A stretch of DNA of 64,000 bases, from assembly GCA_025355725.1 (NCBI GenBank), contig JANXZC010000158.1:2714-66713 (forward strand). The letters are read 5' to 3'. How positions within the stretch are numbered: position 1 is the stretch's first letter; the number at the start of each line of letters is the position of its first letter. Below are positions 3,691 to 17,979 of this stretch, in pieces. Origin of the DNA: Syntrophus sp. (in: bacteria) (GTDB lineage: Bacteria; Desulfobacterota; Syntrophia; Syntrophales; UBA8958). Made by a program: the position numbers and the translations under genes. The notes beneath the pieces are model-generated. The model saw nothing but the letters and a program-made list of their open reading frames with translations, was not told where the DNA came from and made no database searches.

Positions 3691-5139
3691 TCAAAACGAA
3701 TAGACCAACTCCCAGCGCGCATAGTACGCAAGGTCATTCTCAGGATAATAATCCCCGGGTTTTAACATTTCCAACCTGAGTTCACCCCTCAGGGTGTCGT
3801 TTTTTCTGAGGATGCTTTCTGCTAGTTGGAAGTTGGCCCGTATCGATGCCAGCCAACCCCTGATGTTTCCATCTCCGCCGCCGTCTCTTACCGGCGCCAA
3901 GAGGTAACCGATCATAAAGTTACTCTGCAGCCACGGAAGGGGGTTTACGGTCAGGTCGCTATAGTACATATTTACGTTGGACCACCGTCCTCCCCCTTCG
4001 TAACTCAAGGTGGTCTGGTAAATCACACTGTATCCCGCCCAGCGGGCAAAGGGCGAATCCCACCCTTCCTCCGTATCTTTAGACGGATCTCGGCCTGAGG
4101 TGTAATACCATCCGGCGCCCAGAACCGGCTTTAAACGATGCAGGAACGGCATTTTCCATTTCAGGAGAAAGTCGGCCATGTATCCAGTCTTGGGCGTTCC
4201 GCCGTCGTAGTACCCCGTTTGATAGGCGGCCTCGAAGTTGCCCTCCAGCGTATCGGTAAACTGAGGCATAATCCGCATGCCGAAGGTGTTGAATTGCAAT
4301 GCTGGGACCTTGACCATGTTTGTTTCGGGATCGTAAATCTGTACCCTCCCAACGTCCGTGTAAAGGTCCCCGTCAAACTCCCAACTGCTTTCACGCTTAT
4401 AGATACTGTAGGCCTCTATGGTCAACTTCGGGAGTGACTTGTTTTTGATGTAGATCCCGAATCCTGCTTCTGTCATCCATTCGCGCCAGGAAGGATAACC
4501 TGTCAGGTCCCTTCCTTGGGGATTGATGACCAGATTATTGGTCGGCCGGTCGTAAATGCCGATAATGTCGATTTCGGTATCCTTTATCCCCTTCCAGGTT
4601 ACCCGGGCGGCGTCGAAATATTCCGTCCGCCCCGAGCTCTTCGGTGTGCCGTTGGCGATAATTTTTCCGGTTCCGTAACGCAGTTCCTGCCTGCCTATCC
4701 TCAGATCGAGACTGCCGCCGGACAGTTTCTTTACATTCACATATAACTGGTCGACAAAGATTTCATCGGGAAACCGGTAGTTAGTGGTGCCGGACGGCTC
4801 AAAATAATATCGGAATTCGTTTGATATCCTGCCCCTGAAACTCACGTCTTCCCATGGCTGTATCTCGGCCCATAACCGGGTGCGGAGACGGAGGAAATTC
4901 GTATCGGAAAAATATTTGTCCCGGTAGTAGGGAACATTGTCGAAATAAGTCTGCCTGAGCCGGACATCGCCGCCAATTTTAAAGGGAATGCCGTCTGTTA
5001 CTCGGGGAGAACCATCTTCGGCTCCCGTTGCCGATGCGCCCGCGAGCAGAAAGGACAATACCAGCAAGGTGAAAAAGGAACGAATCGACCCCGTAATCAA
5101 AGCCGATGGATTATTTGCCATATGGTTTAGGCTTTCCAC
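3691..5139 (-). CDS. outer-membrane beta-barrel protein (alginate-export-like porin)
   Basis: Signal peptide (FFTLLVLSFLLAGASATGA), alternating aromatic/Gly beta-strand pattern throughout, and the C-terminal OMP signature ...YARWELVYSF ending in Phe. Assignment to the alginate-export family is from memory of the fold pattern. Confidence 0.55.
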   Translation of the reverse strand: MESLNHMANNPSALITGSIRSFFTLLVLSFLLAGASATGAEDGSPRVTDGIPFKIGGDVRLRQTYFDNVPYYRDKYFSDTNFLRLRTRLWAEIQPWEDVSFRGRISNEFRYYFEPSGTTNYRFPDEIFVDQLYVNVKKLSGGSLDLRIGRQELRYGTGKIIANGTPKSSGRTEYFDAARVTWKGIKDTEIDIIGIYDRPTNNLVINPQGRDLTGYPSWREWMTEAGFGIYIKNKSLPKLTIEAYSIYKRESSWEFDGDLYTDVGRVQIYDPETNMVKVPALQFNTFGMRIMPQFTDTLEGNFEAAYQTGYYDGGTPKTGYMADFLLKWKMPFLHRLKPVLGAGWYYTSGRDPSKDTEEGWDSPFARWAGYSVIYQTTLSYEGGGRWSNVNMYYSDLTVNPLPWLQSNFMIGYLLAPVRDGGGDGNIRGWLASIRANFQLAESILRKNDTLRGELRLEMLKPGDYYPENDLAYYARWELVYSF

Positions 5140-5665
5140 TGAAAACGATGAATTTTACTGTTGATTAAAGTAACTGATATGAGGTTTTTTTGCAAGGGCC
5201 TGAATTTATATCAAATTGAGTCAAATTAAATATTACCCAAGGAGGTGAAGAAAAAGGATTGTTGATTCATAAATCGATGCATTTGCCGCATCAGAACCGG
5301 GAAGTGTTTAGGAGAGCAGGGAAACCACCACTGACCATGTCAGTGGTTTTGACAGGAAATAAATATTATTGATGCCCGCCAGAAAAGTTCAAGGGCATGG
5401 GCAAGTAGATGTTGTGAATTCCAGCCAACACCTCTATTTCAATGTAAAGTCTTGCTGGCTTCCAAGAGAAAGGTGGCAAATAATTCCGTCTCAAACTGCC
5501 TGTTGTCTTGTCTTGATCATTGCCCCTTATCGCATTGCCAAGCTGGGACGGGGGGAGATCGCCACACACCACCAGGGCCAAGCGGAAAGGGGAGATCCGA
5601 TCCTCCGTCAGGGGTGAGTTCATGGCATTGCGCTCAATGACATTCTCGGACAATAACCTCTCTCT

Positions 5666-6499
5666 TCAGGTCATCTCTTTAAGTTTAGCTCCTGCTTCCC
5701 ATTGTTCCGCTTCGAGGAGATCTTTATCCGTTTTGTAGATCGTACTCGTATCGGCCCCATCCCACCTGGCTTCATGCATCAGGACGGCATGCATGTCCGC
5801 ATACGTCAGTTCTGCCTGGGAAAAATCTGCTCCTTTTACTATGGCGTGAGAGAAATTGGTGTAAGGCAAACGGGCCCGCACGAATTGTGCCCCTGTACAA
5901 TCCCCTTTAATAAAAAGGGATTGGGCGAGGGAGGCGTCCGCAAAGTTGGATACTTTGAGTTTCGCTTCCGTGAAATTGGACATAGGCAGGTTTGCCTTAT
6001 GGAAGTCCGCCTTATCTGCCTTGGCGCCGACAAAATTTACATATTTACCGTGGGCCTCCCGGAAGATTGCCCCGATCAAATTCGCCCCGGCAAAGCTCGC
6101 CTGGGTGATATCGGCACGGGAAAAATCGGCGGCTTTGAGATCTGCCTTCTCCAGGATGATCATTTTGAGGTTACAATTCAAAAACTTCTGCCCGGCCAGC
6201 TTTGCTTCCATGAAATAGGCTTTCGTCAGATCGGTTTGATGAAAAATGGCGGTGGTCATATCAGATGCGCCGGCTATCATGCGGCTTAGATTTGCCCCCG
6301 TGAAATCGGTCCCGGTTAGCAGACAGTGGTGCAGCGTAACCCGGGAAAGTGTCGCGCCCGCAAAGATGCAACCGCGAAGCGAAACATTTTCGAAAAAAGC
6401 CCCAGTAATTTCGCATCCGGAAAAATCAAGGCCCGTCAGGTCGGCGTCTTTGATTCCCCCATCTTTCCTGATCTTTTCAAGATATTCTTGTGCGCTCAT
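5666..6499 (-). CDS. pentapeptide-repeat protein
   Basis: Continuous A(D/N)LxX repeats (ADLTGLDFSGCEITGAFFENVSLRGCIFAGATLSRV...). Its ATG overlaps the upstream stop (ATGA), implying translational coupling. Confidence 0.85.
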   Translation of the reverse strand: MSAQEYLEKIRKDGGIKDADLTGLDFSGCEITGAFFENVSLRGCIFAGATLSRVTLHHCLLTGTDFTGANLSRMIAGASDMTTAIFHQTDLTKAYFMEAKLAGQKFLNCNLKMIILEKADLKAADFSRADITQASFAGANLIGAIFREAHGKYVNFVGAKADKADFHKANLPMSNFTEAKLKVSNFADASLAQSLFIKGDCTGAQFVRARLPYTNFSHAIVKGADFSQAELTYADMHAVLMHEARWDGADTSTIYKTDKDLLEAEQWEAGAKLKEMT

Positions 6500-9051
6500 A
6501 GATCCTTATTCAATGACAGCAGGGTTCTTTTGATATTTGCACCTTTGAGATTCGCTTTGTTGAGCTTCGCCTGGTAAAAATCAACACCGTAAAGGTTCGA
6601 CAACTTAAGGTCCGTCCACATCAGGCTTGCTTTGCGTAGCGAGCCTTTGAAGAGATTGATCCCCCCGAGAGTTGCCCCTTCGAGGTTTGCCTTGGCGAAT
6701 TTTGCTTCTCTGGCAATGGCCCTGGTTAAAATGGCGCCGTTTAGGTCCGCCGCTGTAAAATCTGCCCGGTCCAGCTTGGCCTCGTGCATTTGCGCCCGGG
6801 CCAGCTTCACTCCTTCCCAGGAGGCGTCTGTAAGATCAGCACGGTAAAATCGCCCGTTCGTAATTTCTGTATCTTTATCGGCCCGCGATTTTTTCAGGGA
6901 AGAGACGCTAAATGACGGTGAATCTCCCTTGACGCCAAAAAGCTTGATTCCGTCGGCCCGGACTTGGAAAAACGACGCATGTGATATCTGCGCTCCCGTA
7001 AGATCCGCTTCGCTGAGATCTGCTTCATCGAACTTGGTCTCACTGAGATCAGCCCCGGCAAACAGGGATCTGGGGGCCTTCGCTTTTACGCATTCCGCTT
7101 CCGTCATGATTGCCTTTTCGAATACGGCTTCGGTCATCGTGGCTCCCGTAAGATTCACGGCGGTAAAATCCGATGCCGTAAAATCACCCCCGGTCAGATC
7201 GGCCCTTTGCATAGAAGCCTTCACAAACTTTGCCTTCCCGGAACTGGCATGATTAAACAAGGCATCATCCATGACGGCTTCGCTGAAATCGGTTTCCGTC
7301 ATCAAGGCGCCGGTAAAACTGGCGCCCGCGAGTTTTGACTTCTTAAAGATGGCCCGCTCAAGGATAGAGTTCGAAAAGTCAGCCCCCGGCATCACCTGAC
7401 CGGAAAAGTCAATTCCCGTCAGGTCAAGGTTGCCCAAAGGTTCTCCCTGCCAGTACTTTGCCAGAACGTATTCCAGGGTCACGGCTGCCTCTGCCTGGGG
7501 AGGGACCGGCAACTCCGGGGGAGGGGCTTGAGCTGCTTGCGCGGCCTCGGCTGCCGCCTGCTTCTCAAGGTTGCCCAGGGAGGTCAGGGATTCGTGAACA
7601 AGCTTTTCCGTTTCCTTGAGCTGGGCCTCGATTTCCGGTTTGTGAAAGCCTCCCTTCCTGAGTCCGGCGATGATCTCGTCGGCGGATTTCAAAGGCGCCT
7701 CGGGCTTCGGCGCCATGATTTTCTCAACGTCGGCGGTAGTAAGGCCGAATTTTTTCATAAAATCGGCGGTCTGCTTTTCCAGGGCGGCAACAGCCGTTCC
7801 CAGGTCGGAAAGTGACCCTGTCGCCGCCCTCGCTTCGACAGGGGAAAACTGCCTGACCACGGCATCCGGATCGAGGCCTGCCTGCTTTAGCATTGCCGTG
7901 GTTTTGGCTTCAAATTCCTGGGTTTCCTTGAGCAGAGAAGCCAATTCCGGTTTAATCGCCGGGGCATCAGGTGGCGCCGTTACAGGGGCCGGTTTTGATT
8001 CCGGCAGCGGTTCCACCGGCGCTGCTTCCGCCTTCGCTTCCGCCGGGGTCAGTTTTTCCTCAAACATCCGGCGATATTCTTCAATGGATTTCGGTTGATC
8101 TTTGAGGGATTCCCATTGGGCATAAAAATGAAGCACATCTTCATACTCATCATCTGCCACGGCGACAGTGCCGCGATAGAGGAGAATGCCAATCTCCCGG
8201 TCGGGAAAGAGCCATAGCGTCTCCGCCCGGCAGGGTACTTCTTTGAAGATATCCTTTTCCCCCTCTTTCTGGTGAACGAAAAGACGACCCCGCAAGGCCG
8301 GCAGGTTTGATTTGATTACCGGCTTCCGGGGGTGCATATTGCGGATTTCCACCTTTTCGTCGCCGTTAAAGAACCCGGCGAGGCGCTGATCCTCCGGGGC
8401 GGCGTTGAAATATTCCCAGTCCGTATCCTTGGGGAAATGGGGCCAGTCTTCAAGCAACCACTTTTGATCCACCTTACCCAAATAGCCAAGCCGCTGGGGC
8501 CACGTCAGCGGGTAGGCAGTGAAACCGGCCGGTTTGGGTCTGTCTCCGGGAGAGCTCATGAGCTGACGGGGATCCTGAACATTGGGGAGCGGGGTTTTCC
8601 CCGTGCCATCGTGTTCCATTCCTTTCCCCAGGGGGTTCTCCGGCAGGTTCGGACCGCCGAAGGCATTTCCATAATTAATGGGCATATGGCTGAAAGGTTC
8701 GGGGTCCTGCGCCCCTGCCAGGCTCCAGTGGTGGTTTCCGAAAATGGCCAGGGTCTTGGATAAATTTCCGACGCGAACATGTACTTCCAGACCATGAACA
8801 GGCTTTGGCGCAAAGCCGGAACCATAAACGAGATATTCCCCGTGCACCTTGGGGACGCCGAAGTCGAAGATTTCGTCCTCATTTAAGGCCGCCCCGATAA
8901 TGGGCCACATCTCCGGCTCATCAAGGAGGCGGTTGGAAACGGATGTGTCCAGGGTGAAACAGGCGCAGGCAGCGATGGAAAGGCAGGCCCTTTTATCAAT
9001 AAAGCAGCTTTTGAAAAGGAGACCAAGATTTTGCGGTTTGATAATCTTCAT
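6496..9051 (-). CDS. DUF2169-domain protein fused to a Pro/Ala/Glu-rich linker and a C-terminal pentapeptide-repeat domain (T6SS accessory/adaptor family)
   Basis: The N-terminus MKIIKPQNLGLL... and PAGFTAYPLTWPQRLGYLGKVDQKWLLEDWPHFPKDTDWEYFNAAPEDQR match the DUF2169 pattern. The C-terminal ~300 aa are A(D/N)LxX repeats. The gene sits directly downstream of vgrG. Confidence 0.8.
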   Translation of the reverse strand: MKIIKPQNLGLLFKSCFIDKRACLSIAACACFTLDTSVSNRLLDEPEMWPIIGAALNEDEIFDFGVPKVHGEYLVYGSGFAPKPVHGLEVHVRVGNLSKTLAIFGNHHWSLAGAQDPEPFSHMPINYGNAFGGPNLPENPLGKGMEHDGTGKTPLPNVQDPRQLMSSPGDRPKPAGFTAYPLTWPQRLGYLGKVDQKWLLEDWPHFPKDTDWEYFNAAPEDQRLAGFFNGDEKVEIRNMHPRKPVIKSNLPALRGRLFVHQKEGEKDIFKEVPCRAETLWLFPDREIGILLYRGTVAVADDEYEDVLHFYAQWESLKDQPKSIEEYRRMFEEKLTPAEAKAEAAPVEPLPESKPAPVTAPPDAPAIKPELASLLKETQEFEAKTTAMLKQAGLDPDAVVRQFSPVEARAATGSLSDLGTAVAALEKQTADFMKKFGLTTADVEKIMAPKPEAPLKSADEIIAGLRKGGFHKPEIEAQLKETEKLVHESLTSLGNLEKQAAAEAAQAAQAPPPELPVPPQAEAAVTLEYVLAKYWQGEPLGNLDLTGIDFSGQVMPGADFSNSILERAIFKKSKLAGASFTGALMTETDFSEAVMDDALFNHASSGKAKFVKASMQRADLTGGDFTASDFTAVNLTGATMTEAVFEKAIMTEAECVKAKAPRSLFAGADLSETKFDEADLSEADLTGAQISHASFFQVRADGIKLFGVKGDSPSFSVSSLKKSRADKDTEITNGRFYRADLTDASWEGVKLARAQMHEAKLDRADFTAADLNGAILTRAIAREAKFAKANLEGATLGGINLFKGSLRKASLMWTDLKLSNLYGVDFYQAKLNKANLKGANIKRTLLSLNKDL

Positions 9052-9072
9052 ATCTGTCTCTACAGTCGTCCT

Positions 9073-11778
9073 CTATCCCAATTGAATGATACCGGTGGGG
9101 TCGATTGAAAGCGGACCGGCGTGCAGGTTTGCACCCAGGAAATTAAGCTTGATCCCGGTCTGCGAGCTCACACTGATATAATCGTTACCATGCTGGATCT
9201 TTATATCGTTGGCCGAGGCCACCACTTTTCCTCCTGCCGGCTGCTGTTCCATAGTGGCATCGGCGGCGGCCAAGGTTATTTTCCCTCCCCCGTTCTTTTG
9301 AATAACCACATTGGCACTGGTAACCTTAACGCTGTTGGCGGCGGGTAGCTGCTCAAGAGCCACCCCCTGGGCATCAACGGTAATCTTGCCCCCGGCCTGC
9401 TCCTTCTGAATAGTGATGCTTTCGTTGATTCCCGGGGTCATCTTGATGGAAGATGTCGGCGTAGCCATCACGGGACCGATCAGCAACTGGATGCCGTTAT
9501 TGTATGCAAGCTGAGCACTGTAGGGGCTGGCGTAAACTTTGATTCCCGTGTCATTCATCTCAATTTTGCTGATAGCGTTTGTGAGTTCGGTGCTCAGCTT
9601 ATTAACCAGATACGCCAGAGCGGCCACCTGCGCAGCCGCTCCCACCGCGATGGGTGCCATGCTTACCCCCATCTGCTTCATGGCCGCAACACCGCTCTCC
9701 TCATCGGGATAAGCGGCGCTGGCAATGTCACCGCCAAAGGCGGCCAGAAGGGCTCCCACCGCGGCACCGCCAAAGATCAGGGTTTTCTGCAGCGTGGACA
9801 GCACGGCCTTATCAGCAGGAAGAAGACCGGCGGAAATCACTACTTCTTCCGTGCCCAGCAGATCGTCTTTATCCTTGATGGTCTCTTTGGTCTTCCCGAA
9901 TTCGACGTGATGGCCTGCTTTGCACTCAATAGTCCCCGCCCATTCGAAAACGCTCTTCATGGCCATGGTGAACTCCGAGGCCGTCCCCACCATAAGTTCC
10001 GACTTAGAACCGATGGTCACATAGTTCTCCGAACCGATAACGATTGAGTCTTCCTGTCCCATGACCACTTCATGCTTGTTACCCGACGACTTGACGTGAA
10101 ACGCCCCTTCATCCTCTCCCCCCTTGCCTATATAGATACCATGGCCCTGCTTTCCAAAGGGGCTGAAGAGATAAATGTATTCCTCCCCCGTGGTATCGTC
10201 CATGACAATTTGATTGCCACCGGGGGTCTTGATTACGTGCTGTTTAGGATTTTTATCCGTAACCACGTTGAAGTCCTGGGAGTTGAAAACGGCACCGCTG
10301 ATGACGGGGAGATCGGGGTCGCCGTCCCGGAAGGAGAGGACAACCTCCGCCCCCTTGTGCAACGGGAAATTCATACCGTGAGTCTTGTCGCTCGTCCCGG
10401 CGAAAGGGCTCGCCATCCGCACATGATAAGAACTCGTACTCTTCCCCCACTTATTGCTGAAATCGTCACCCCCCTCCTCCGGCGCAAAAGGAAGCCTGAC
10501 CTTGTAGCGGCCCAGGGTCGGATCGATGTCCGGCGTCTCCGTAGACAGATCCCCGTCGATAACTGCATTCATAGTCGCGTGGATCTTTGGCTTGGGCGTC
10601 AGGCGCTGGGATCGGAACTGCACCGCTGCCGGAATCATCGTGAAGGTATTGTTATATTGAAATTCCTCCTCAACCCCCGTTAGCGGCTGTTGGCCCTCAT
10701 GTGCGGCATGGATGATCAGGTAATCACCGGAAAAGGTCTGACCGGGATCGTCAATGGTAATCAAAGTCCCGGGGATCAGGCCCGGCCCTGAAGCCATACC
10801 GTAATAAACCTTGGTCTGGCAGAATATCTCCTCGGCCCTGATCCCGGCCAGAGTCTGACCTTCCTCGGCAGTACTGAAATTCTCCCCATAAATGGTCTGC
10901 ACCCTGCCCGAGACATCGGTCGCAGAGCCTACATCCGCCGATGCCGACATGGTCCCCATCCCCGCCGTATTGTAATTGTAATTCCTCAAGATCACCTTCG
11001 CCGGAAAGGCCGCCTGATGCATGATCATGGTAAATATCGTCTCCGGCGCCGGGCCGGCGCCGGGAGTACCCACAGCCTTGTACTGCAACGTCTTCGTCGC
11101 CGGGGGATGGGATATTCTCGTATCCGTAATTACCATCTTTTCCGGCATCACATCCTGCAAACTATCATGCCAGGTCTGGTCCTGTTCAAAATAATAATAG
11201 ACCCCTTCCCTCTCCATCAGGCGCTGAAGAAAATTGAGGTCGCTCTCTTCATACTGACACACATAGGACCAGCGATTGTATCCCCCCAGCAACGGATCAT
11301 AATGGGTCCCCGTCAACTTCAGCTCATAGTCGAGAGAAGTAAAGCCGTTATCCTTCATAACGCCATCAATGATAGCACCAAACGCCTTCCCAACATAAAT
11401 GTCCGAGCGTGTATTGAGGTAAAGAAGAAACATCTTCGAGCGAAGCCGGAGCTCATACTGAGTGTAATCGCCCACCCTCTGGATCTGACGAAACTCCGTG
11501 ACGATGCCGTGATAGTAGGAAAAATGATTTTGAACAACCATGCATAATACGGCCGGTCGCAGCAGCACCTCCCCGAGCAAGGCCGGTATATTGTCCGTCG
11601 TGGAACGGAGAGTGACATAAAAATCATAAACAAAGGAAAGATTCTCATCCCCTGTAAACTTGACCACATCGAACTCCGGCTTGACCGTATCCTTGTCGTT
11701 ATAGATGAAGCTGAAGGTGAAATAATCATCCGGAGCTCCGCTAACGTCTGTCAAATTGTCCCACTTGTCCTCTTCCAT
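9073..11778 (-). CDS. vgrG: type VI secretion spike protein VgrG (TssI) with an extended C-terminus
   Basis: gp27-like region (YVCQYEESDLNFLQRLMEREGVYYYF), gp5 OB-fold (HVRMASPFAGTSDKTHGMNFPLHKGAEVVLSFRDGDPDLPVISGAVFN) and beta-helix repeats. GGGAGA lies upstream of the ATG. Confidence 0.9.
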   Translation of the reverse strand: MEEDKWDNLTDVSGAPDDYFTFSFIYNDKDTVKPEFDVVKFTGDENLSFVYDFYVTLRSTTDNIPALLGEVLLRPAVLCMVVQNHFSYYHGIVTEFRQIQRVGDYTQYELRLRSKMFLLYLNTRSDIYVGKAFGAIIDGVMKDNGFTSLDYELKLTGTHYDPLLGGYNRWSYVCQYEESDLNFLQRLMEREGVYYYFEQDQTWHDSLQDVMPEKMVITDTRISHPPATKTLQYKAVGTPGAGPAPETIFTMIMHQAAFPAKVILRNYNYNTAGMGTMSASADVGSATDVSGRVQTIYGENFSTAEEGQTLAGIRAEEIFCQTKVYYGMASGPGLIPGTLITIDDPGQTFSGDYLIIHAAHEGQQPLTGVEEEFQYNNTFTMIPAAVQFRSQRLTPKPKIHATMNAVIDGDLSTETPDIDPTLGRYKVRLPFAPEEGGDDFSNKWGKSTSSYHVRMASPFAGTSDKTHGMNFPLHKGAEVVLSFRDGDPDLPVISGAVFNSQDFNVVTDKNPKQHVIKTPGGNQIVMDDTTGEEYIYLFSPFGKQGHGIYIGKGGEDEGAFHVKSSGNKHEVVMGQEDSIVIGSENYVTIGSKSELMVGTASEFTMAMKSVFEWAGTIECKAGHHVEFGKTKETIKDKDDLLGTEEVVISAGLLPADKAVLSTLQKTLIFGGAAVGALLAAFGGDIASAAYPDEESGVAAMKQMGVSMAPIAVGAAAQVAALAYLVNKLSTELTNAISKIEMNDTGIKVYASPYSAQLAYNNGIQLLIGPVMATPTSSIKMTPGINESITIQKEQAGGKITVDAQGVALEQLPAANSVKVTSANVVIQKNGGGKITLAAADATMEQQPAGGKVVASANDIKIQHGNDYISVSSQTGIKLNFLGANLHAGPLSIDPTGIIQLG

Positions 11779-11829
11779 ATGATCTCCCTAACAAAGATGA
11801 CCTTCGTTGTGATTACAAATACATCCAAT

Positions 11830-12225
11830 TCATCCCATGATCATGACCTTGTTCTGGCTCGGCGCCAGCACGGAACCTACGGCATTGCCGTCGTTCTGTT
11901 TGGTCATATTGCCGAGAAATACGGCCGGATTGCCCTCCAATTTCACCTTTGTACTCCCCATAACGAATTCCGCGGGCCCCATGATCTTGCCGGAGACAGC
12001 TCCCTGGTTGACGCCTCCCTCATCACCGTTCGTAGGCGATATCTTCGAGGCCTTCGTCAGTGCGGGCATGCCATTGATCAAGACCTTGGTGGTGACCGGG
12101 TTGCCCATCTGGGGCATGCCGGTGTTGGGGTAGGGGGTCGGAATGGGCGGGGCCGGCGGGGCCGGGGTAAGGCAGACATCAGGCATGGCCATGAGCTGCC
12201 CATTTTCTTTGGTAACGGCAAACAT
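11830..12225 (-). CDS. DUF4150 PAAR-like spike-tip protein
   Basis: PDVCLTPAPP..PIPTPYPNTG...TKVLINGMPALTKASKISPTNGDEGGVNQGAVSG...GSTKVKLEGNPAVFLGNMTKQNDGN fits the DUF4150/PAAR-like pattern. It has a strong AGGAGA RBS and no C-terminal toxin extension. Confidence 0.72.
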   Translation of the reverse strand: MFAVTKENGQLMAMPDVCLTPAPPAPPIPTPYPNTGMPQMGNPVTTKVLINGMPALTKASKISPTNGDEGGVNQGAVSGKIMGPAEFVMGSTKVKLEGNPAVFLGNMTKQNDGNAVGSVLAPSQNKVMIMG

Positions 12226-12243
12226 GATATGATTTCTCCTAGG

Positions 12244-12900
12244 CTAACCGATGTGTATCTTCTTACCGTCGATAGTAACTTCCTCTTCCGAGATCAGGGA
12301 GGCATGGCCCGCCTTGACGGAGAAGCGATCCTTAACTATTGTCCGGATTCTGCCGGCCCTGATCTGTTCCAAATTTTCGATCCAGCGGAAACTGTCCCGG
12401 ACCCGCTCTGTGACTCTCCCGACTACGCTGTCAAGGATATCGATAACCTGAACGGACTTTTTGCTCCGCACCTCCATGATACTCGCCAGGAGGGAGCAGG
12501 CCGCAAAACGGACCTTCCCGGAGATACCGGTAATTTCAATATCCGGCGCTTCCAGGGCAACGCTTTTGTCACCACGAACAATAACGTTATCTGCCTGAAG
12601 CTTTAGCGGTCCCGTTTCCGTCCGCAGGCTGGCCTCCCCAGGAAATACCATCTCATAACATGTCCCGACTTTATCCAGAACCATCAGGATGTAGCCGCCT
12701 GCGGCGGCATCAGCGGTTATCAGCACCCGATCCCCAGTGTCCGGTTGAAGGAGACATCCCTCCGCCTTGCGCACCCAGAGGGATGCCCCGTCGTCAGTAT
12801 CAATCCGATAACGATCCTCGTCCCATTCCATTACCAGGCCATAGGCCAGGGATACAGGCCAAACAGTTACATTCTTTCTCAATACGGCAACATTTGTCAT
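12244..12900 (-). CDS. DUF3540-like protein, first gene of the vgrG island
   Basis: I chose the ATG at 12900, preceded by AAGAGG; the track start at 12921 is a TTG. The motif AEGCLLQPDTGDRVL...GGYILMVLDK and its position next to DUF4150/VgrG/DUF2169 match my recollection of DUF3540 neighbourhoods. The family call is context-driven. Confidence 0.5.
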   Translation of the reverse strand: MTNVAVLRKNVTVWPVSLAYGLVMEWDEDRYRIDTDDGASLWVRKAEGCLLQPDTGDRVLITADAAAGGYILMVLDKVGTCYEMVFPGEASLRTETGPLKLQADNVIVRGDKSVALEAPDIEITGISGKVRFAACSLLASIMEVRSKKSVQVIDILDSVVGRVTERVRDSFRWIENLEQIRAGRIRTIVKDRFSVKAGHASLISEEEVTIDGKKIHIG

Positions 12901-13250
12901 GGCGATACCTCTTTCCCGCAAAAAAGATTACTCCCGGCTCATCGGACGCATCTCATTATTTTCGGATGACCTGGAGAGGTATCCAAAAGGTTCCGTCTCC
13001 AAGAGCACGGGGAGTATAAAGAAATCCATCTCTCATGTCAAAATTATTTAAAGTCCAACTTAATATTAGCATGGCGTCGCACCTCATATTTTACGGTCAA
13101 TATCTCATTGACACATCGGGCAGTCCATCGTATGTTTTCAAAACTCATGCCCACTCTTACCCTCCTAGTAAAAGGAAGAGAAAGGGTTCATTATCCGCTA
13201 GTATTCATGGTGGATAGCCGTCATGGGGATGACGAAAATCTCCCGTAACC

Positions 13251-13338: not shown

Positions 13339-14505
13339 ATGTTAAAGCGGATTTTGATACCAATCCTATGTTTCGTGGTTATCCAGACGGGCCTTTTGAT
13401 CATGGATGCCGGATGGACGCCTGCGTCGGCCGCTGGGAAAAAGCTCATCGTCGGCATTGCCAATGATCCGCCTTATACTTTCAAGAACGAGCAAGGGCAG
13501 TGGACCGGAATAACGGTTGATCTCTGGCGACATATCGCCCAGGACTTGAAACTGGATTATTCGCTGAAGGAGATGACTCAGGAAGAAGTCCTGGATTCAC
13601 TTCAGAACGGCTCTATAGATTTATCGGCCGACGCCGTTATCATCACCTCGCAACGGGAACAGCGTTTTGAGTTTACCGTGCCCATTGCCAGCACGCGCGT
13701 AGCCGTGGCAACCCTTTACGACAAGGAAGATCACCCATGGCTGGCAGCCCTGAAGATATTCTTTTCCTGGGGTACTTTGAAGATTATCATTGTCCTGCTG
13801 ATGATACTGCTTTTACTTGGATTTCTCTTTTGGCGTATCGAGAAGAAGGGCAACCCCGAACACTTTGGAGAAGGGCTGATCCGGGGTATTGGTTCCGGCA
13901 TTTACTGGGTGGGCTCGACCATGACATCAGGCGTCTGTTTCGGAGTCAGCTTGAAATCTGTCAGCGGCCGGGTATTGGGTCTCTTTTGGATGCTGATCTG
14001 CGCCCTGGCTTTGAGCGCCTTTATTGCATCCCTCAGCTCTTCCCTTACCACGCATCATCTCAGTGAAACAAAATTCGGCATCGATAAGCTGAGAAGAATG
14101 CACTTGGGGACAGAAGCAGGGTCGGTGCCTCATTCCATTGTCGAGAAAATTGGCAGCCGGACAACATTTATAAAGGGCGGTGAAGAGGATGTATTAAAAG
14201 AACTCATCAATAAAAAAATTGACGGCTTCCTTTACGATGAGGCAACGCTGCATTATTACGCAGAGGGGAAATACCGGGGAATCATAACCGTGCACCCGAC
14301 CAGCCTGAAAGAGATCGTTATTGCCTTTGGAATGCCCCACAACAGCCCGCTGCGGAAACCGATCAACATATCGCTGTTAAAGCTTCTCGATGAACCGGTG
14401 TGGGAATCCATCCTCAGCCGTTATGGCCTGGATAGTAATTTCGAAGCAAGGCACATTGTAATCGGCAGGGAAAAGAAACATAAAACCTTGAAAAGCGACG
14501 AATAA
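13339..14505 (+). CDS. GluR0-type channel: family-3 solute-binding domain split by a two-TM pore-loop ion-channel module
   Basis: Signal/TM, then SBP lobe 1 (KKLIVGIANDPPYTFKNEQGQWTGITVDLWRHIAQDL...IITSQREQRFEFTVP), TM (IIIVLLMILLLLGFLFW), pore-loop-like IYWVGSTMTSGVCFG, TM (VLGLFWMLICALALSAFIASL), and SBP lobe 2 (LGTEAGSVPH...IDGFLYDEATLHYY...IAFGMPHNSPLRKPINISLLKL). Confidence 0.65.
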   Translation: MLKRILIPILCFVVIQTGLLIMDAGWTPASAAGKKLIVGIANDPPYTFKNEQGQWTGITVDLWRHIAQDLKLDYSLKEMTQEEVLDSLQNGSIDLSADAVIITSQREQRFEFTVPIASTRVAVATLYDKEDHPWLAALKIFFSWGTLKIIIVLLMILLLLGFLFWRIEKKGNPEHFGEGLIRGIGSGIYWVGSTMTSGVCFGVSLKSVSGRVLGLFWMLICALALSAFIASLSSSLTTHHLSETKFGIDKLRRMHLGTEAGSVPHSIVEKIGSRTTFIKGGEEDVLKELINKKIDGFLYDEATLHYYAEGKYRGIITVHPTSLKEIVIAFGMPHNSPLRKPINISLLKLLDEPVWESILSRYGLDSNFEARHIVIGREKKHKTLKSDE

Positions 14506-14516
14506 GGACAAATACC

Positions 14517-16133
14517 ATGAAGACAATCCCCCCGCCCTACACAATTCTTGCGCTAGGTCCTTTTTGCCCCGTCCCGGAGACGGGATTTTCTTTGAAGATC
14601 ACCCCCGTAGAAACCACGGCTCTTCAGGAGGCTTTTAGTGAATTGTCACCCCGGCTCTGGATTCCGGCACCCACGGACATCTGCCCGCCCGGGGGGCTGA
14701 CCCTGCAACCGTCCGGGATAAGAGACCTCACCCCGGACGGCCTGATCCGGACGACACCCTATCTCAAGGATCTCTGCGACGCCGGGGAATTGATCGCCAA
14801 GGGCCACAGCAGCGGCGCCACCCCGGCTGATATCGCCGCCCAGGTGCAGTCCGCCTGGCCCCATCTTCCCTTGGACCTTTCCATTCCCACCGTATCTGCG
14901 CATGGGCAACAGGCAACCCGCCTCGACAGCGCCGTCGACGATATCCTCTCCATGGTGGCCATGCCCGATGGACCAGATCAGGGAGCGCCAAGGAGCGCGG
15001 GAGGTCCTGCGGAGTGGAAAAGGAATCTTGATGACCTCTTGTCGGCAAATATCGCCTGTATCTTCGGAAGCAAAGACTTCCGAGCCTTTGAAGCGACCTG
15101 GCGGGGGGCGGAATGCCTCATCCGCCGGGGCGGTGTTAAGGAAGGGGGGAAGATCGTATTGAAAATCGTCCCGGTCTCGGCAGAGAGCCTTTCCGGGACC
15201 TTGGAATCCCTGGCAATCGAACTTGCTGCGGACACCCCCGACCTTATCCTCATCGACCTGCCCCTGGACAACACCCCCGGGGGCGTCGAGACACTGGGGA
15301 AAATCGCCGCCTTTGCGGCTACACTGCTCATCCCGGCGACAACATGGATTACCCCCGCTTTTTTCCATCTTGATAACTGGCGGGATCTGCACCGCCTTGC
15401 CTATCTCAAAAACCATCTGGACGACGCCGTCTATGCCAAGTGGCGCAAACTCAGGGAACAACCGTCGGGGCAGTGGCTGACCATGACCTGCAACCGTTTT
15501 CTTACCCGCCCTCCCTATGGAGAAGACAACCGCCCCCGCTCCGTCGCCTTCACGGAGCAGGAACTCCTGTGGATCAGTCCGGTATGGGCACTGGGAACCC
15601 TGGCTGCTCAGAGCGTCAACCAGTTTGGCTGGCCATCGCGCCTGAGCGACTACATGCGCATACGCATGAAGGATCTTGCCGTGTCAGTCCAAGGTGATGA
15701 CACAGCTTCGCCCACCGAGGCGGTCTTCCCGGACGACCGGATTCGGCAGTTTGTGGAAATCGGCATCACACCCCTGGCGGGGGCGCCGGGGCAGGACACG
15801 GCCTTCATGCCCAAGGCAGCCGTCGCCTCCGGCGAATCCCTTCTTTCCCAAATGTTCCTTTCCCGGATCATCGGTTTTCTCATCAGGTTGCGGGAGGCCT
15901 ACGAGCAAAGCGACAGGGAAACGGAACCGATAAGTTTCGTCACCGAGGCCCTGATGGCCTTTTTTGAAGCAACGGGACAGGAACCGCCGGACGACCTGTT
16001 GGTAGCCGTCGGCGCCCACCCTGAAGGACACAAGCAGGAGGAAGAGGCAACGCTGCCCCTGGATATTACCTTCACTCCTCCGAAGGCGGTGTCCCCGGAT
16101 TCCCGAAATCTGGCCTTCACCTTTTCCTGGTAG
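14517..16133 (+). CDS. fused TssB-like / TssC-like contractile-sheath homologue (single 538-aa polypeptide)
   Basis: Residues 1-100 follow the VipA/TssB pattern (YTILALGPF..., LKITPVETTALQEAF, LTLQPSGIRDLTPDGLIRTTPYLKDL). From about residue 175 the sequence tracks VipB/TssC block by block: FRAFEATWRGAECLI (cf. FQAMESAWRGLKLFV), VYAKWRKLREQPSGQWL, CNRFLTRPPYG (cf. APRFLLRVPYD), LLWISPVWALGTLAAQSVNQFGW, SPTEAVFPDDRIRQFVEIGITPL, and SQMFLSRIIGFLIRL. Confidence 0.65.
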   Translation: MKTIPPPYTILALGPFCPVPETGFSLKITPVETTALQEAFSELSPRLWIPAPTDICPPGGLTLQPSGIRDLTPDGLIRTTPYLKDLCDAGELIAKGHSSGATPADIAAQVQSAWPHLPLDLSIPTVSAHGQQATRLDSAVDDILSMVAMPDGPDQGAPRSAGGPAEWKRNLDDLLSANIACIFGSKDFRAFEATWRGAECLIRRGGVKEGGKIVLKIVPVSAESLSGTLESLAIELAADTPDLILIDLPLDNTPGGVETLGKIAAFAATLLIPATTWITPAFFHLDNWRDLHRLAYLKNHLDDAVYAKWRKLREQPSGQWLTMTCNRFLTRPPYGEDNRPRSVAFTEQELLWISPVWALGTLAAQSVNQFGWPSRLSDYMRIRMKDLAVSVQGDDTASPTEAVFPDDRIRQFVEIGITPLAGAPGQDTAFMPKAAVASGESLLSQMFLSRIIGFLIRLREAYEQSDRETEPISFVTEALMAFFEATGQEPPDDLLVAVGAHPEGHKQEEEATLPLDITFTPPKAVSPDSRNLAFTFSW

Positions 16134-16256
16134 AGGCCGGAAAGGCATCGCAATCTTGTATTGTTTAACAATTCTATATCATTGGTTAATTACGATTAAA
16201 CAAAAAATAGCCCTTTCGAAGAGGGCACAAAGCCTGTGAAATAAGGAGGTCTCGAC

Positions 16257-17033
16257 ATGAAAAAGATCTGGATCAGCGCCTTGGAAAAGGACCAGGAAAA
16301 GGTCCAAAAGATTATGAGTGTGGTCAAGACTTATGGGCTGGCCGTGGATGGGCATTTCTGGCTGGATGACCTGACGAAGATGGCCTGGGACAGCGCCCTG
16401 GAACCTCTTGCTGCCAAGGATACGGCCATGTGGATAATTATCGGCGCAGAGGCCTCATGGCAAACTCTTTCCATCCGGCAAGGACTTTCTCTCCTTGCCC
16501 TTGCCGTTCAACATCAAAAAGGGTTGGGGTTTCCAATCCTCATTGTCCCCACGGAGGGAACAATCGATCCGGAAACGCTTCCCACCCTCTTCCGGGGCGC
16601 AGAGGTTATTCCCTTCGCCACGGCAACGCTGGGACCAAAGATCGTGGCCCTGGCCAATCGGCCTGTAATATCCCTTGATCCGGGATACCGCCTCAATCTC
16701 CACGCCCTCCATGGCATCGGCCTGTGGTTCGAGGTGGGCCCGCCGAAGGACATCCCCTGGGACGGCGCCATGTTCGGCGTCCACGGGGCGGATATCGACG
16801 TCCACGGCGTCGGTCCGGCGGACGGGATTCCTGCCCGAACCGTCCTGGAGTACGCCATGAAGGGCATGAAGGTTACCCTTGGGGAGGAGGAGTTTAACGC
16901 CTGGGCCGCCCAGAATCACCTCGACGGAACCATGTCCTATTACGTCAGGGTCCAGGGCGTCCCCGACAAACTGCTCTTCGGTCCTTATGCCGCCTCCGAC
17001 GATGCGGAGGTCCATATCGTCGCCCTGACTTGA
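16257..17033 (+). CDS. hypothetical protein (258 aa), no family recognised
   Basis: Strong RBS (AAGGAGG 7 nt upstream). The N-terminal ~130 aa alternate beta/alpha (KKIWISALEKDQEKVQKIMSVVKTYGLAVDGHFW...WIIIGAE...PILIVP), and the C-terminal ~120 aa are beta-rich. The strand and codon style match the upstream sheath-like gene. Confidence 0.55.
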   Translation: MKKIWISALEKDQEKVQKIMSVVKTYGLAVDGHFWLDDLTKMAWDSALEPLAAKDTAMWIIIGAEASWQTLSIRQGLSLLALAVQHQKGLGFPILIVPTEGTIDPETLPTLFRGAEVIPFATATLGPKIVALANRPVISLDPGYRLNLHALHGIGLWFEVGPPKDIPWDGAMFGVHGADIDVHGVGPADGIPARTVLEYAMKGMKVTLGEEEFNAWAAQNHLDGTMSYYVRVQGVPDKLLFGPYAASDDAEVHIVALT

Positions 17034-17140: not shown

Positions 17141-17851
17141 TCAGCGAGGGGCTTTATGGTATCCCGCCCGGATCGCCGCCGTCTCGGAATCAAACTCGAC
17201 GCGGTGATAAGCCTCGACCTTATGGTAATATTTCATCCCCGGCAGATGATACCGCTTGCTGTCCCGGTTCCCGACAACCTTCTCCTTCCTTACGACAGCC
17301 GGAGCCGGAGATTTGACTGCCGCCCGCGGGACTTCGGCCTTGACCACCTCAATTTTAACGGCCCTATCCCGGAGGGGATGGAAATAAAAAATAATGCCGG
17401 ACAGAAACACAAAGAAGAAAACGAACGAGGCGACGCTTGTGAAAAAAAGACGGTACTTGCGAAAAAAGCCGGCTTCCTTCACAGAGGAGAGAACCGACGG
17501 GGGGAGGGTATATGAGGGGGCGACGACGGGTGGGGGCAGAGGATCTTCAATAACTTCGGGAAGACACGCTTCAACGGCTTCGGGCAGGCAGTGCCTGACG
17601 GGCTGAGACTCGAAACGTTTCAGGGCCTCCTCCTCATCGATAAGGAGATAACGGCAATAGCTCTTGAGATAATCGGGGACGGCCTTTTTATCCGGGAAGG
17701 CAGCCTGGTCATCGGCTTCCAGTGCCACAAGGAGAGGCAGGCTGATCTTCGTAGCCTTGGAAACGGCTGTCAGCTTGATCTCCCGGGCTTCCCGCTCTCT
17801 GCGCAGATAGGTCCCCAGCGTCTCTCTCTCTTTCTTATCCATAGCCGTCAT
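17141..17851 (-). CDS. membrane-anchored helix-turn-helix (RodZ/Xre-like) protein with a small C-terminal Ada-N/'sunset'-like domain
   Basis: N-terminal HTH region (LGTYLRREREAREIKLTAVSKATKISLPLLVALE), a single TM (FFTSVASFVFFFVFLSGIIFYF), and a C-terminal KRYHLPGMKYYHKVEAYHRVEFDSETAAIRAGYHKAPR. I moved the start to the ATG at 17851; the track start at 17875 is a GTG. Confidence 0.55.
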   Translation of the reverse strand: MTAMDKKERETLGTYLRREREAREIKLTAVSKATKISLPLLVALEADDQAAFPDKKAVPDYLKSYCRYLLIDEEEALKRFESQPVRHCLPEAVEACLPEVIEDPLPPPVVAPSYTLPPSVLSSVKEAGFFRKYRLFFTSVASFVFFFVFLSGIIFYFHPLRDRAVKIEVVKAEVPRAAVKSPAPAVVRKEKVVGNRDSKRYHLPGMKYYHKVEAYHRVEFDSETAAIRAGYHKAPR

Positions 17852-17979
17852 CCTCGATATTCCTTCATAACACACCCCCCGGTCCTTGACAATACGAATG
17901 TCCCTTCCTTCCTGCTGTCCTTTTTCCTTGACACCTCGTCATCCGTTCATTATCCTCACTCCCGGGGAATGATAAAATC

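Follow-up and report, generated by a model that had tools for sequence, protein, structure and literature searches.

An intact Class III Tvp spike-tip module in a Syntrophales bacterium with a candidate payload in the VgrG C-terminal region

We analyzed a 64,000-nt window of contig JANXZC010000158.1 from the Syntrophus sp. assembly GCA_025355725.1. Five genes lie on its minus strand, from the open reading frame at 12244-12921 down to that at 5666-6499, in the transcriptional order tvpC-paar-vgrG-tvpAB-tvpB, and Pfam matched all five defining families with E values from 2e-34 to 3e-77. The DUF3540 gene tvpC (12244..12900, minus strand; E 1.9e-42) likely starts at the ATG at 12900, preceded by an AAGAGG box, to give 218 aa, with a TTG at 12921 (225 aa) as the alternative; its relatives, 208-218 aa long, carry PF12059 in 20 of 20 cases. 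Next, paar (11830..12225, minus strand; Tox-PAAR-like/DUF4150, E 2.3e-34) encodes a 131-aa PIPY-type PAAR-like cap with a proline-rich stretch (TPAPPAPPIPTPYP) and no extension or effector domain. The 901-aa spike encoded by vgrG (9073..11778, minus strand) was recognized by the Pfam models Phage_GPD (E 2.4e-52) and Phage_base_V and by NCBIfam TssI/VgrG (238 bits, against a cut-off of 186 bits). In the 851-aa TvpAB protein (6496..9051, minus strand), a DUF2169 domain at aa 21-293 (E 3e-77) is joined by a linker to a pentapeptide-repeat beta-helix of ~300 aa that reaches aa ~845, and, among solved structures, the N-terminal part matched 8vth, a DUF2169 structure (E 1.1e-15). Finally, tvpB (5666..6499, minus strand) encodes a stand-alone pentapeptide-repeat protein of 277 aa (E 3.6e-40). 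The genes, coordinates and families named in the original prediction, including a 131-aa PAAR-like protein without toxin extension, were thus confirmed, as was its reading that no enzymatic toxin is present: Pfam and NCBIfam searches detected no toxin domain in any of the five proteins.

The genes are closely packed. Direct reading of the sequence verified the reported stop/start overlap of tvpAB and tvpB at 6496-6499 as ATGA, by which tvpB is, on sequence grounds, translationally coupled to tvpAB; the remaining gaps are 19, 51 and 21 nt, the last between vgrG and tvpAB. Upstream of tvpC, a consensus scan and direct reading located a putative sigma-70-like promoter (13013..13041, minus strand; TTGACA-17-TATACT, 11/12 matches) in a divergent intergenic region of 438 bp. 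None of the five frames is interrupted, and dN/dS values are 0.06-0.28 (tvpC, 0.15-0.16; paar, 0.06-0.09; vgrG, 0.15-0.28; tvpAB, 0.20-0.21; tvpB, 0.26-0.28). The five genes are intact, under purifying selection and not decaying.

Behind tvpB lies a conserved tail (5328..5665, minus strand) with a 95-aa TTG-start ORF (5366-5653) and a perfect hairpin with an 8-bp stem at ~5328-5346, where similarity to the nearest relative stops. The DNA of this ORF is ~95% conserved in that relative, with a 22-nt indel that shifts the N-terminus and with 6 of ~10 substitutions changing the amino acid; the ORF is absent from the ortholog of the island in the complete congener genome G004, and the tail has no Rfam match. 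It is probably a 3' untranslated region with a terminator rather than an immunity gene, in line with earlier doubts about the ORF, and no immunity gene adjoins the island, also as anticipated. On the other side, a divergently transcribed trio (13339..17033, plus strand) encodes a GluR0-type channel (13339-14505) and a 538-aa fused TssB-TssC sheath paralogue (14517-16133), both assigned by Pfam/NCBIfam, and a 258-aa protein of unknown family (16257-17033). In many homologues of the 538-aa protein, PF05591 and PF05943 occur together. The same neighbors adjoin VgrG/Tvp modules at loci L019, L041 and L042 and in G004 and, minus the channel, at the Desulfovibrionaceae loci L036 and L037; a Fundidesulfovibrio counterpart shares 49% identity with the 258-aa protein. 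The Desulfovibrionaceae loci have an NlpC/P60 gene and a 250-aa gene located between those for the 258-aa protein and PAAR; the two look like a classical effector-immunity pair. In G000, L019, G004 and L041, no cargo-type gene is found in or beside the island.

VgrG has a gp27/gp5 core up to aa ~600, where similarity to solved VgrG structures stops, followed by a lineage-restricted C-terminal module found in only 29 representative clusters among 1.84 billion proteins. Beyond the portion homologous to solved structures, two Ala/Gly-rich hydrophobic segments (aa 659-690 and 703-728; hydropathy >1.7 over 19-residue windows) are linked by the acidic loop PDEES (aa 659-728; 9595..9804, minus strand). 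Close homologues keep this pair, as do 16/16 of the family members inspected, the most divergent of which are ~30% identical. An AF2 monomer model, poor outside the N-terminal domain, places helices at aa 654-689 and 693-731, at pLDDT 29-40. In Burkholderia VgrG-5, aa 651-697 are predicted to form a transmembrane segment of 46 aa; its deletion abolished cell fusion but not secretion (10.1101/2023.02.09.527577). Because the hydrophobic pair is conserved, lies past the structurally solved region and parallels the VgrG-5 segment, we regard aa 659-728 as a candidate membrane-inserting helical hairpin and hence as the likeliest payload. The earlier proposal that the effector is encoded elsewhere was nearer the mark than its alternative, but the best candidate lies inside VgrG rather than in a separate gene. 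A search run without a positive control found no Vai1/DUF3192-like immunity gene, so that an antibacterial membrane toxin would have no known self-protection.

The closest described system is Serratia marcescens Db10's Class III Tvp system, comprising VgrG1, TvpAB, TvpB, TvpC and Paar1 (Monlezun, Earl & Coulthurst, EMBO J 2026, PMC13373197). Class III is defined by exactly these five families and is accompanied by PAAR proteins that are small and have no effector domain (PMC13373197); it equals the DUF2169 'synteny type C' arrangement, in which ~37% of DUF2169 genes occur (Sachar et al., JBC 2025, PMC11883445). Both loci share the five protein families, a DUF2169-pentapeptide fusion followed by a separate pentapeptide protein, a ~130-aa PAAR-like cap without effector domain, a VgrG longer than usual and the lack of a separate toxin gene. 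They differ in order (vgrG-(vai1)-tvpAB-tvpB-tvpC-paar in Serratia), in the Vai1/DUF3192 gene, in whose place there are only the 21 nt between vgrG and tvpAB here, in host, an uncultured anaerobic Syntrophales bacterium here, and in the VgrG tail, which in Serratia VgrG1 is a purely elongated beta-prism with hydrophobic last 26 residues rather than one with an internal hairpin. The same five-family set is listed for T6SS-5 of the Burkholderia pseudomallei group (VgrG-5, TagA/B-5, TagB-5, TagC-5 (DUF3540) and TagD-5/PAAR5; PMC6335564; 10.1101/2023.02.09.527577), which likewise has no known immunity gene and whose 130-aa PAAR-like protein also carries an N-terminal proline-rich stretch. The internal hydrophobic segments sit at nearly the same place in both VgrGs, a likeness of position and description; the C-terminal domain of VgrG-5 is reportedly confined to Burkholderia. 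The Burkholderia module lies in canonical order within a core cluster and targets mammalian host-cell membranes, whereas here tvpC-paar precede vgrG and the host is a free-living anaerobe. More distantly, prePAAR/TMD effectors with Eag (DUF1795) chaperones also carry spike-borne, membrane-inserting hydrophobic segments that are shielded before firing. The families are unrelated, however, and those segments are N-terminal in a PAAR/Rhs toxin instead of lying inside a VgrG prism, with the DUF2169/pentapeptide proteins as the presumed shield here.

Given the five families, the 8vth match, the tight coupling, the upstream promoter match and the identical sets in the literature, we consider it likely that the island is one operon for an alternative T6SS spike tip and its assembly helpers, a module of Tvp Class III, which equals 'synteny type C' and the Burkholderia T6SS-5 Tag set, and that its payload most likely has no gene to itself and is probably the VgrG C-terminal module.

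The original prediction had termed the island an orphan and allowed for a decaying remnant under relaxed selection in a genome that lost its T6SS. Consistent with such a loss, TssM, TssB, canonical TssC, Hcp and TssF were not found in this 98.4%-complete metagenome-assembled genome (MAG). The same MAG, however, contains a tssJ-tssK-tssL run that is interrupted where contig C10 stops, leaving only the 5' end of tssL, and the genes upstream keep synteny with the complete G004 cluster. That congener carries all 13 core genes and four such modules on one contig, with the ortholog of the island, in the same gene order, inside a single ~55-kb T6SS super-locus. A fragment of another module on a 3-kb contig (C26) suggests that the assembly breaks up where modules are repeated. 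Together with five open frames and the low dN/dS values, these data make a remnant very improbable, and the island is probably not an orphan.

Another idea, also raised originally, makes the pentapeptide-repeat proteins the cargo. TvpB would then be a toxin, perhaps one that mimics DNA, with immunity provided by the DUF3540 protein. A model of this kind was put forward for Pantoea ananatis DZ-12 TecG-TseG-TsiG (Zhao et al. 2024, PMC10933656), where the same set occurs by position (DUF2169 gene, pentapeptide gene, next gene, PAAR and VgrG) and the pentapeptide protein is read as effector and the next gene as immunity. There, the stand-alone pentapeptide protein is secreted T6SS-1-dependently, is mildly toxic, slowing E. 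coli growth, which the downstream gene rescues, and binds both neighboring gene products (PMC10933656). At family level, the pentapeptide regions of the island are similar to Qnr/MfpA-type repeats, though they score far under every curated cut-off. Yet the Pantoea interactions are exactly those of a Tvp pre-complex, and Serratia TvpAB and TvpB, which serve the spike tip as cap and 'seat belt', never turned up in the secretome (PMC13373197). Burkholderia requires TagA/B-5 for Hcp-5 secretion (PMC6335564), which is the mark of a component of the machine and not of a payload, and all four G004 modules repeat the same set, pairing each VgrG tip with its own Tvp proteins. The AF2 model of TvpC, poor beyond the N-terminal domain, has a confident five-stranded N-terminal barrel (pLDDT 74-91), an OB-fold as described for the VgrG mimic TvpC, with PDB matches that were all generic OB-folds and not VgrG specifically. 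The effector reading from Pantoea, which conflicts with the Serratia and Burkholderia data, is a minority view, advanced in one paper, that we do not favor; it appears quite improbable for this locus, where the pentapeptide proteins are most likely helpers. Somewhat more credible, but still unlikely, is a purely structural spike variant with an inactive VgrG tail, hydrophobic segments that only dock the Tvp cap or baseplate, and toxins encoded elsewhere, as Hcp-borne effectors, on other VgrGs or in the neighboring trio. In Serratia, Hcp-dependent cargo is likewise delivered by VgrG1-Paar1 assemblies, and the Tvp proteins may do no more than occupy the cavity of the baseplate (PMC13373197); the missing immunity gene and the Desulfovibrionaceae NlpC/P60 pair fit as well. 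Paired ~25-residue Ala/Gly-rich segments retained across ~30% identity, however, exceed the needs of a docking patch and have a functional parallel in VgrG-5, and the island loci compared above lack cargo-type genes.

For the favored module with a VgrG-borne payload, we infer the assembly pathway by analogy with Serratia. TvpC, proposed as a trimeric VgrG mimic seeding the pre-complex, would form a short VgrG-like trimer on which the small hydrophobic PAAR-like cap settles. The DUF2169 domain of TvpAB, a putative PAAR chaperone and tip wrap, would grip the cap, and the beta-helices of TvpAB and of TvpB, the putative 'seat belt', would wrap and belt the tip. Real VgrG would then replace TvpC in the baseplate, and the Tvp proteins would remain in the cell on spike firing. 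The hairpins, three per trimer, may loop out of the beta-prism and insert into a target membrane, with parallels in the membrane-depolarizing Serratia VgrG1 and in the VgrG-5 C-terminal domain that mediates membrane fusion. The island is an ordinary, intact example of the recently characterized Class III Tvp kit, in which, as a rule, the PAAR-like cap is small and toxin-less and a separate effector gene is absent.

The island at positions 5666-12900 is a real, intact and ordinary member of the known and recently explained Class III Tvp system, for which we propose the annotation tvpC-paar-vgrG-tvpAB-tvpB. Six-frame ORF listing gave five closely packed minus-strand genes (12921/12900-5666), and Pfam searches assigned a domain to each product. 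The first gene, tvpC (12244-12900, minus strand), encodes a DUF3540 protein (E 1.9e-42, profile positions 3-199 of 199 covered). Its most likely start is the ATG at 12900, since this codon has an AAGAGG box upstream and yields a protein of 218 aa, a length as in relatives. A consensus scan found a predicted promoter, TTGACA-17-TATACT, at 13041-13013 on the minus strand. The product of paar (11830-12225, minus) is a 131-aa protein with a Tox-PAAR-like/DUF4150 domain (aa 11-117, E 2.3e-34), no extension and a PIPTPY motif within a proline-rich stretch. The 901-aa product of vgrG (9073-11778, minus) contains Phage_GPD (E 2.4e-52) and Phage_base_V domains, and NCBIfam agreed with the VgrG call. 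In tvpAB (6496-9051, minus), a DUF2169 region (aa 21-293, E 3e-77) matching the solved DUF2169 structure 8vth (E 1.1e-15) is combined with ~300 aa of pentapeptide repeats that end at aa ~845. Directly after it, tvpB (5666-6499, minus) encodes a 277-aa pentapeptide protein (E 3.6e-40), with the stop and start codons overlapping as ATGA at 6496-6499. For both pentapeptide regions, NCBIfam returned only sub-threshold and generic matches (Qnr, MfpA, PipB2, HetL). The original prediction, made from sequence alone, was borne out in its five domain calls by the profile search, in the minus-strand packing by the ORF listing and in the stop/start overlap by direct sequence reading.

The island shares with Class III systems a DUF2169-pentapeptide TvpAB, a separate TvpB, a long-DUF3540 TvpC, a small effector-less PIPY/DUF4150 PAAR-like protein and, in the same operon, a VgrG with an extended C-terminal tail. 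Class III corresponds to DUF2169 ‘synteny type C’, which comprises ~37% of DUF2169 genes (Sachar et al. 2025, PMC11883445), and the same set is present in Burkholderia T6SS-5 as VgrG-5, TagA/B-5, TagB-5 and TagC-5 together with TagD-5 (PMC6335564). In Serratia, TvpAB, TvpB, TvpC (a VgrG-like trimer) and the DUF4150 protein Paar1 form a pre-complex, in which TvpC is later replaced by VgrG1; TvpAB and TvpB were never detected in the secretome, and the antibacterial, membrane-depolarizing effect follows VgrG1 itself (PMC13373197). PAAR proteins associated with Class III systems are small and devoid of effector domains (PMC13373197). The missing toxin is, therefore, a trait of the class and not an anomaly of this island.

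The published definition of Class III does not include gene order. The canonical order in Serratia is vgrG-tvpAB-tvpB-tvpC-paar, whereas the island reads tvpC-paar-vgrG-tvpAB-tvpB. This permuted order also occurs in the locus of the nearest relative (L019) and in an ortholog in the complete congener genome G004, one paralogous module of which keeps the canonical order. Specific to this copy are the permuted order, a conserved hairpin of hydrophobic segments in the VgrG tail and the fused-sheath and 258-aa neighbors. For TvpC, an AF2 monomer showed an N-terminal barrel at pLDDT 74-91 and a C-terminal half at pLDDT <50. Every Foldseek match of the barrel in the PDB was an OB-fold (E ~1e-3) and none was VgrG-specific; a model of one chain does not capture the trimeric prism. 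BLASTP gave no significant match between TvpC and the island’s own VgrG.

The original prediction regarded the island as an orphan and called for a genome check for a core T6SS. The window belongs to a 3.15-Mb metagenome-assembled genome (MAG; 183 contigs, 98.4% complete). This check gave a divided answer: whole-genome family searches recovered no more than TssK, TssJ and part of TssL, and Hcp, TssB, TssF, TssM and canonical TssC were not found in the MAG. The genes detected lie at the end of one contig (C10), which carries tssJ and tssK and breaks off ~66 codons into tssL. In G004 (completeness 100%), the genes that share synteny with C10 continue directly into tssJKLM-tssA-tssB-tssC-hcp-tssE-tssF-tssG-clpV, and the 13 core T6SS genes are followed by four VgrG/Tvp modules on one contig. 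We consequently rejected a missing T6SS machine as the explanation, as C10 ends inside tssL and G004 holds the full syntenic cluster. The third G004 module is a same-order ortholog of the island with identities of 70-95% (tblastn) or 73-94% (global alignments). On a further MAG contig, C26 (L035, 3084 nt), a second vgrG is represented by its 3′ end and a long TvpAB gene by its first ~930 codons; the contig is 84.5% identical to the second G004 module, indicating that the MAG assembly breaks at repeated modules. Judged from these contig ends and the G004 super-locus with its orthologous island, the most likely reason for the orphan appearance is that the assembly broke up at repeated modules. 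Decay into a remnant, which the original prediction had named as a possible refutation, was also rejected: dN/dS values of 0.06-0.28 against two relatives, in all five genes, contradict it.

The G004 modules occupy a ~55-kb super-locus (C7:48559-102697; L031-L034) and are of two designs, one with ~900-aa VgrGs bearing the hydrophobic hairpin and ~850-aa TvpABs, the other with ~750-780-aa VgrGs bearing a coiled-coil-like tail and 1260-1306-aa TvpABs. The fourth module has no equivalent in the MAG. On its tvpB side, the island abuts unrelated genes on this contig, so its chromosomal place differs from that in G004. Just beyond the island lies a gene for a 482-aa alginate-export-family outer-membrane barrel (3691-5139, minus) with no counterpart at the same position in L019 or G004, indicating that the tvpB-side junction varies among relatives. 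The related-locus search of genome contigs yielded only two close loci; the wider context came from genome and encoding-contig searches.

We found no toxin family in the five proteins using Pfam and NCBIfam, as anticipated by the original prediction, and the toxin domain with adjacent small immunity gene that marks classical T6SS effector-immunity islands is absent here. The vgrG-tvpAB gap of 21 nt leaves no space for a gene at the position of Serratia Vai1, and no PF11399 (DUF3192/Vai1) match was found in the MAG, the control genomes being likewise without a match. A 95-aa ORF, already doubted as an immunity gene, was rejected after base-by-base alignment with a relative, which revealed ~95% DNA identity, substitutions that for the most part alter the amino acid, and an indel that shifts the frame; it is not convincingly coding, and its region has no Rfam match. 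The ~300 nt 3′ of tvpB (5328-5665) are ~95% identical to L019 except for a 22-nt indel, and the similarity ends directly after a perfect hairpin, CCACTGAC-ATG-GTCAGTGG. The tvpB gene of L019 has an altered stop codon and a product longer by 15 aa.

Homology of the island’s VgrG to solved VgrGs stops near aa 600, beyond which two Ala/Gly-rich hydrophobic segments (aa 659-690 and 703-728, Kyte-Doolittle 1.77-1.80) are linked by an acidic PDEES loop and followed by beta repeats as far as a conserved C-terminal ...IQLG. The hydrophobic pair is at the same position in all 16 VgrG relatives examined, down to ~30% identity. The tail itself is rare: a HMMER search of 1.84 billion representatives detected the module in only 29 clusters, all of them VgrGs of 860-950 aa or fragments, and 19 clusters, mostly from Syntrophales, emerged from a word-based search across 5.8 billion proteins. 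The AF2 monomer of the whole VgrG had a mean pLDDT of 55, with the C-terminal beta repeats (aa 776-887) at 71-86; at the hydrophobic segments it draws two long helices at low confidence (pLDDT 29-40), lending weak support to a hairpin. Compared to its paralogues, the VgrG is 82-88% identical in the gp27 part and 11-28% in the tip, a gradient that fits a tip co-evolving with its own Tvp set. By published description, Burkholderia VgrG-5 likewise carries an internal segment of this kind in its C-terminal domain, a predicted 46-aa transmembrane stretch (residues 651-697), deletion of which abolished cell fusion and virulence and left secretion intact (preprint 10.1101/2023.02.09.527577). On the basis of the tail beyond solved-VgrG homology, its rarity, the conserved hydrophobic pair and the VgrG-5 parallel, we propose that this VgrG is a specialized spike whose hairpins, three per trimer, would insert into the target membrane, with the pentapeptide wrap shielding them until firing.

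Two other readings place the activity elsewhere. The island might provide a structural spike only, with effectors encoded at other sites. This is possible, as the VgrG1 assemblies of Serratia deliver Hcp cargo too, and Desulfovibrionaceae loci hold an NlpC/P60 gene paired with a gene for a protein of up to 250 aa. In the Fundidesulfovibrio and Desulfovibrio loci (L036, 13172-14490; L037, 12468-13735), these genes, for 189-191-aa and 231-250-aa proteins, are flanked by the 258-aa gene on one side and the PAAR gene on the other and are candidates for a peptidoglycan-hydrolase effector and its immunity protein; the window contains no such pair. Alternatively, the pentapeptide proteins could be the cargo, an option raised in the original prediction and claimed for Pantoea TseG/TsiG by Zhao et al. 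2024 (PMC10933656). We do not favor it: the interactions reported for TseG/TsiG are those of the Tvp pre-complex, and the claim is at odds with what has been found in Serratia and Burkholderia.

Beside the operon, a divergent plus-strand trio encodes a GluR0-type channel, a 538-aa protein and a 258-aa protein, none with a defense-system match in PADLOC. The channel (13339-14505), with an SBP_bac_3 domain interrupted by Lig_chan (GluR0 architecture), ends 11 nt upstream of the 538-aa gene (14517-16133). Homologues of the latter often contain both VipA and VipB domains, which marks it as a single-chain TssB-TssC sheath paralogue. The 258-aa protein (16257-17033) has no family assignment in Pfam or NCBIfam and is 49% identical to its Fundidesulfovibrio counterpart. 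Trio genes adjoin VgrG/Tvp modules in L019, G004 and two further loci, L041 and L042; in L042 only the 258-aa gene is visible, as the contig begins just upstream. At the channel position, L041 carries a shorter SBP/Lig_chan-Glu_bd gene of 270 aa, and nothing of the kind is present in the Desulfovibrionaceae loci. In Fundidesulfovibrio and Desulfovibrio, the sheath paralogue and 258-aa protein adjoin a VgrG/TvpAB/PAAR module, with canonical TssC on another contig; in Syntrophales and Desulfovibrionaceae alike, the pair recurs away from canonical tssBC genes. Further along the window (17141-17875, minus) is a gene for a 244-aa protein whose N-terminal HTH is RodZ-like and whose C-terminus is formed by a ‘sunset’ domain (NCBIfam NF051437, E 3.7e-10). 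Its 348-aa G004 counterpart directly follows the fourth VgrG/Tvp module.

As these neighbors recur beside VgrG/Tvp modules, the functional unit is probably larger than the five genes, and the consistent presence of the fused sheath paralogue and 258-aa gene suggests further accessory parts. A far more speculative reading, which we consider unlikely as a whole, is that the Syntrophales/Desulfovibrionaceae Tvp module belongs to a larger undescribed unit, always with the fused TssB-TssC and 258-aa proteins and, in Syntrophales, the glutamate-receptor-type channel. Its spike would have a built-in transmembrane hairpin and no need of an immunity gene, and the unit could act as a membrane-fusing or channel-inserting device against non-kin membranes instead of launching antibacterial toxins in the classical way. 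If true, eukaryotic grazers or archaeal syntrophic partners would be examples of possible targets.

Assignment to Class III removes the apparent mystery of ‘toxin-less’ vgrG/DUF2169/pentapeptide/DUF3540/PAAR-like islands, which are spike-assembly kits. The island also bears on a question left open by the Serratia and Burkholderia work, the membrane action of VgrGs without a toxin domain. With an unmistakable conserved hydrophobic hairpin in its tail, this small VgrG family of uncultured anaerobes offers a cleaner test system than does Serratia VgrG1, as well as a harmless counterpart to VgrG-5.
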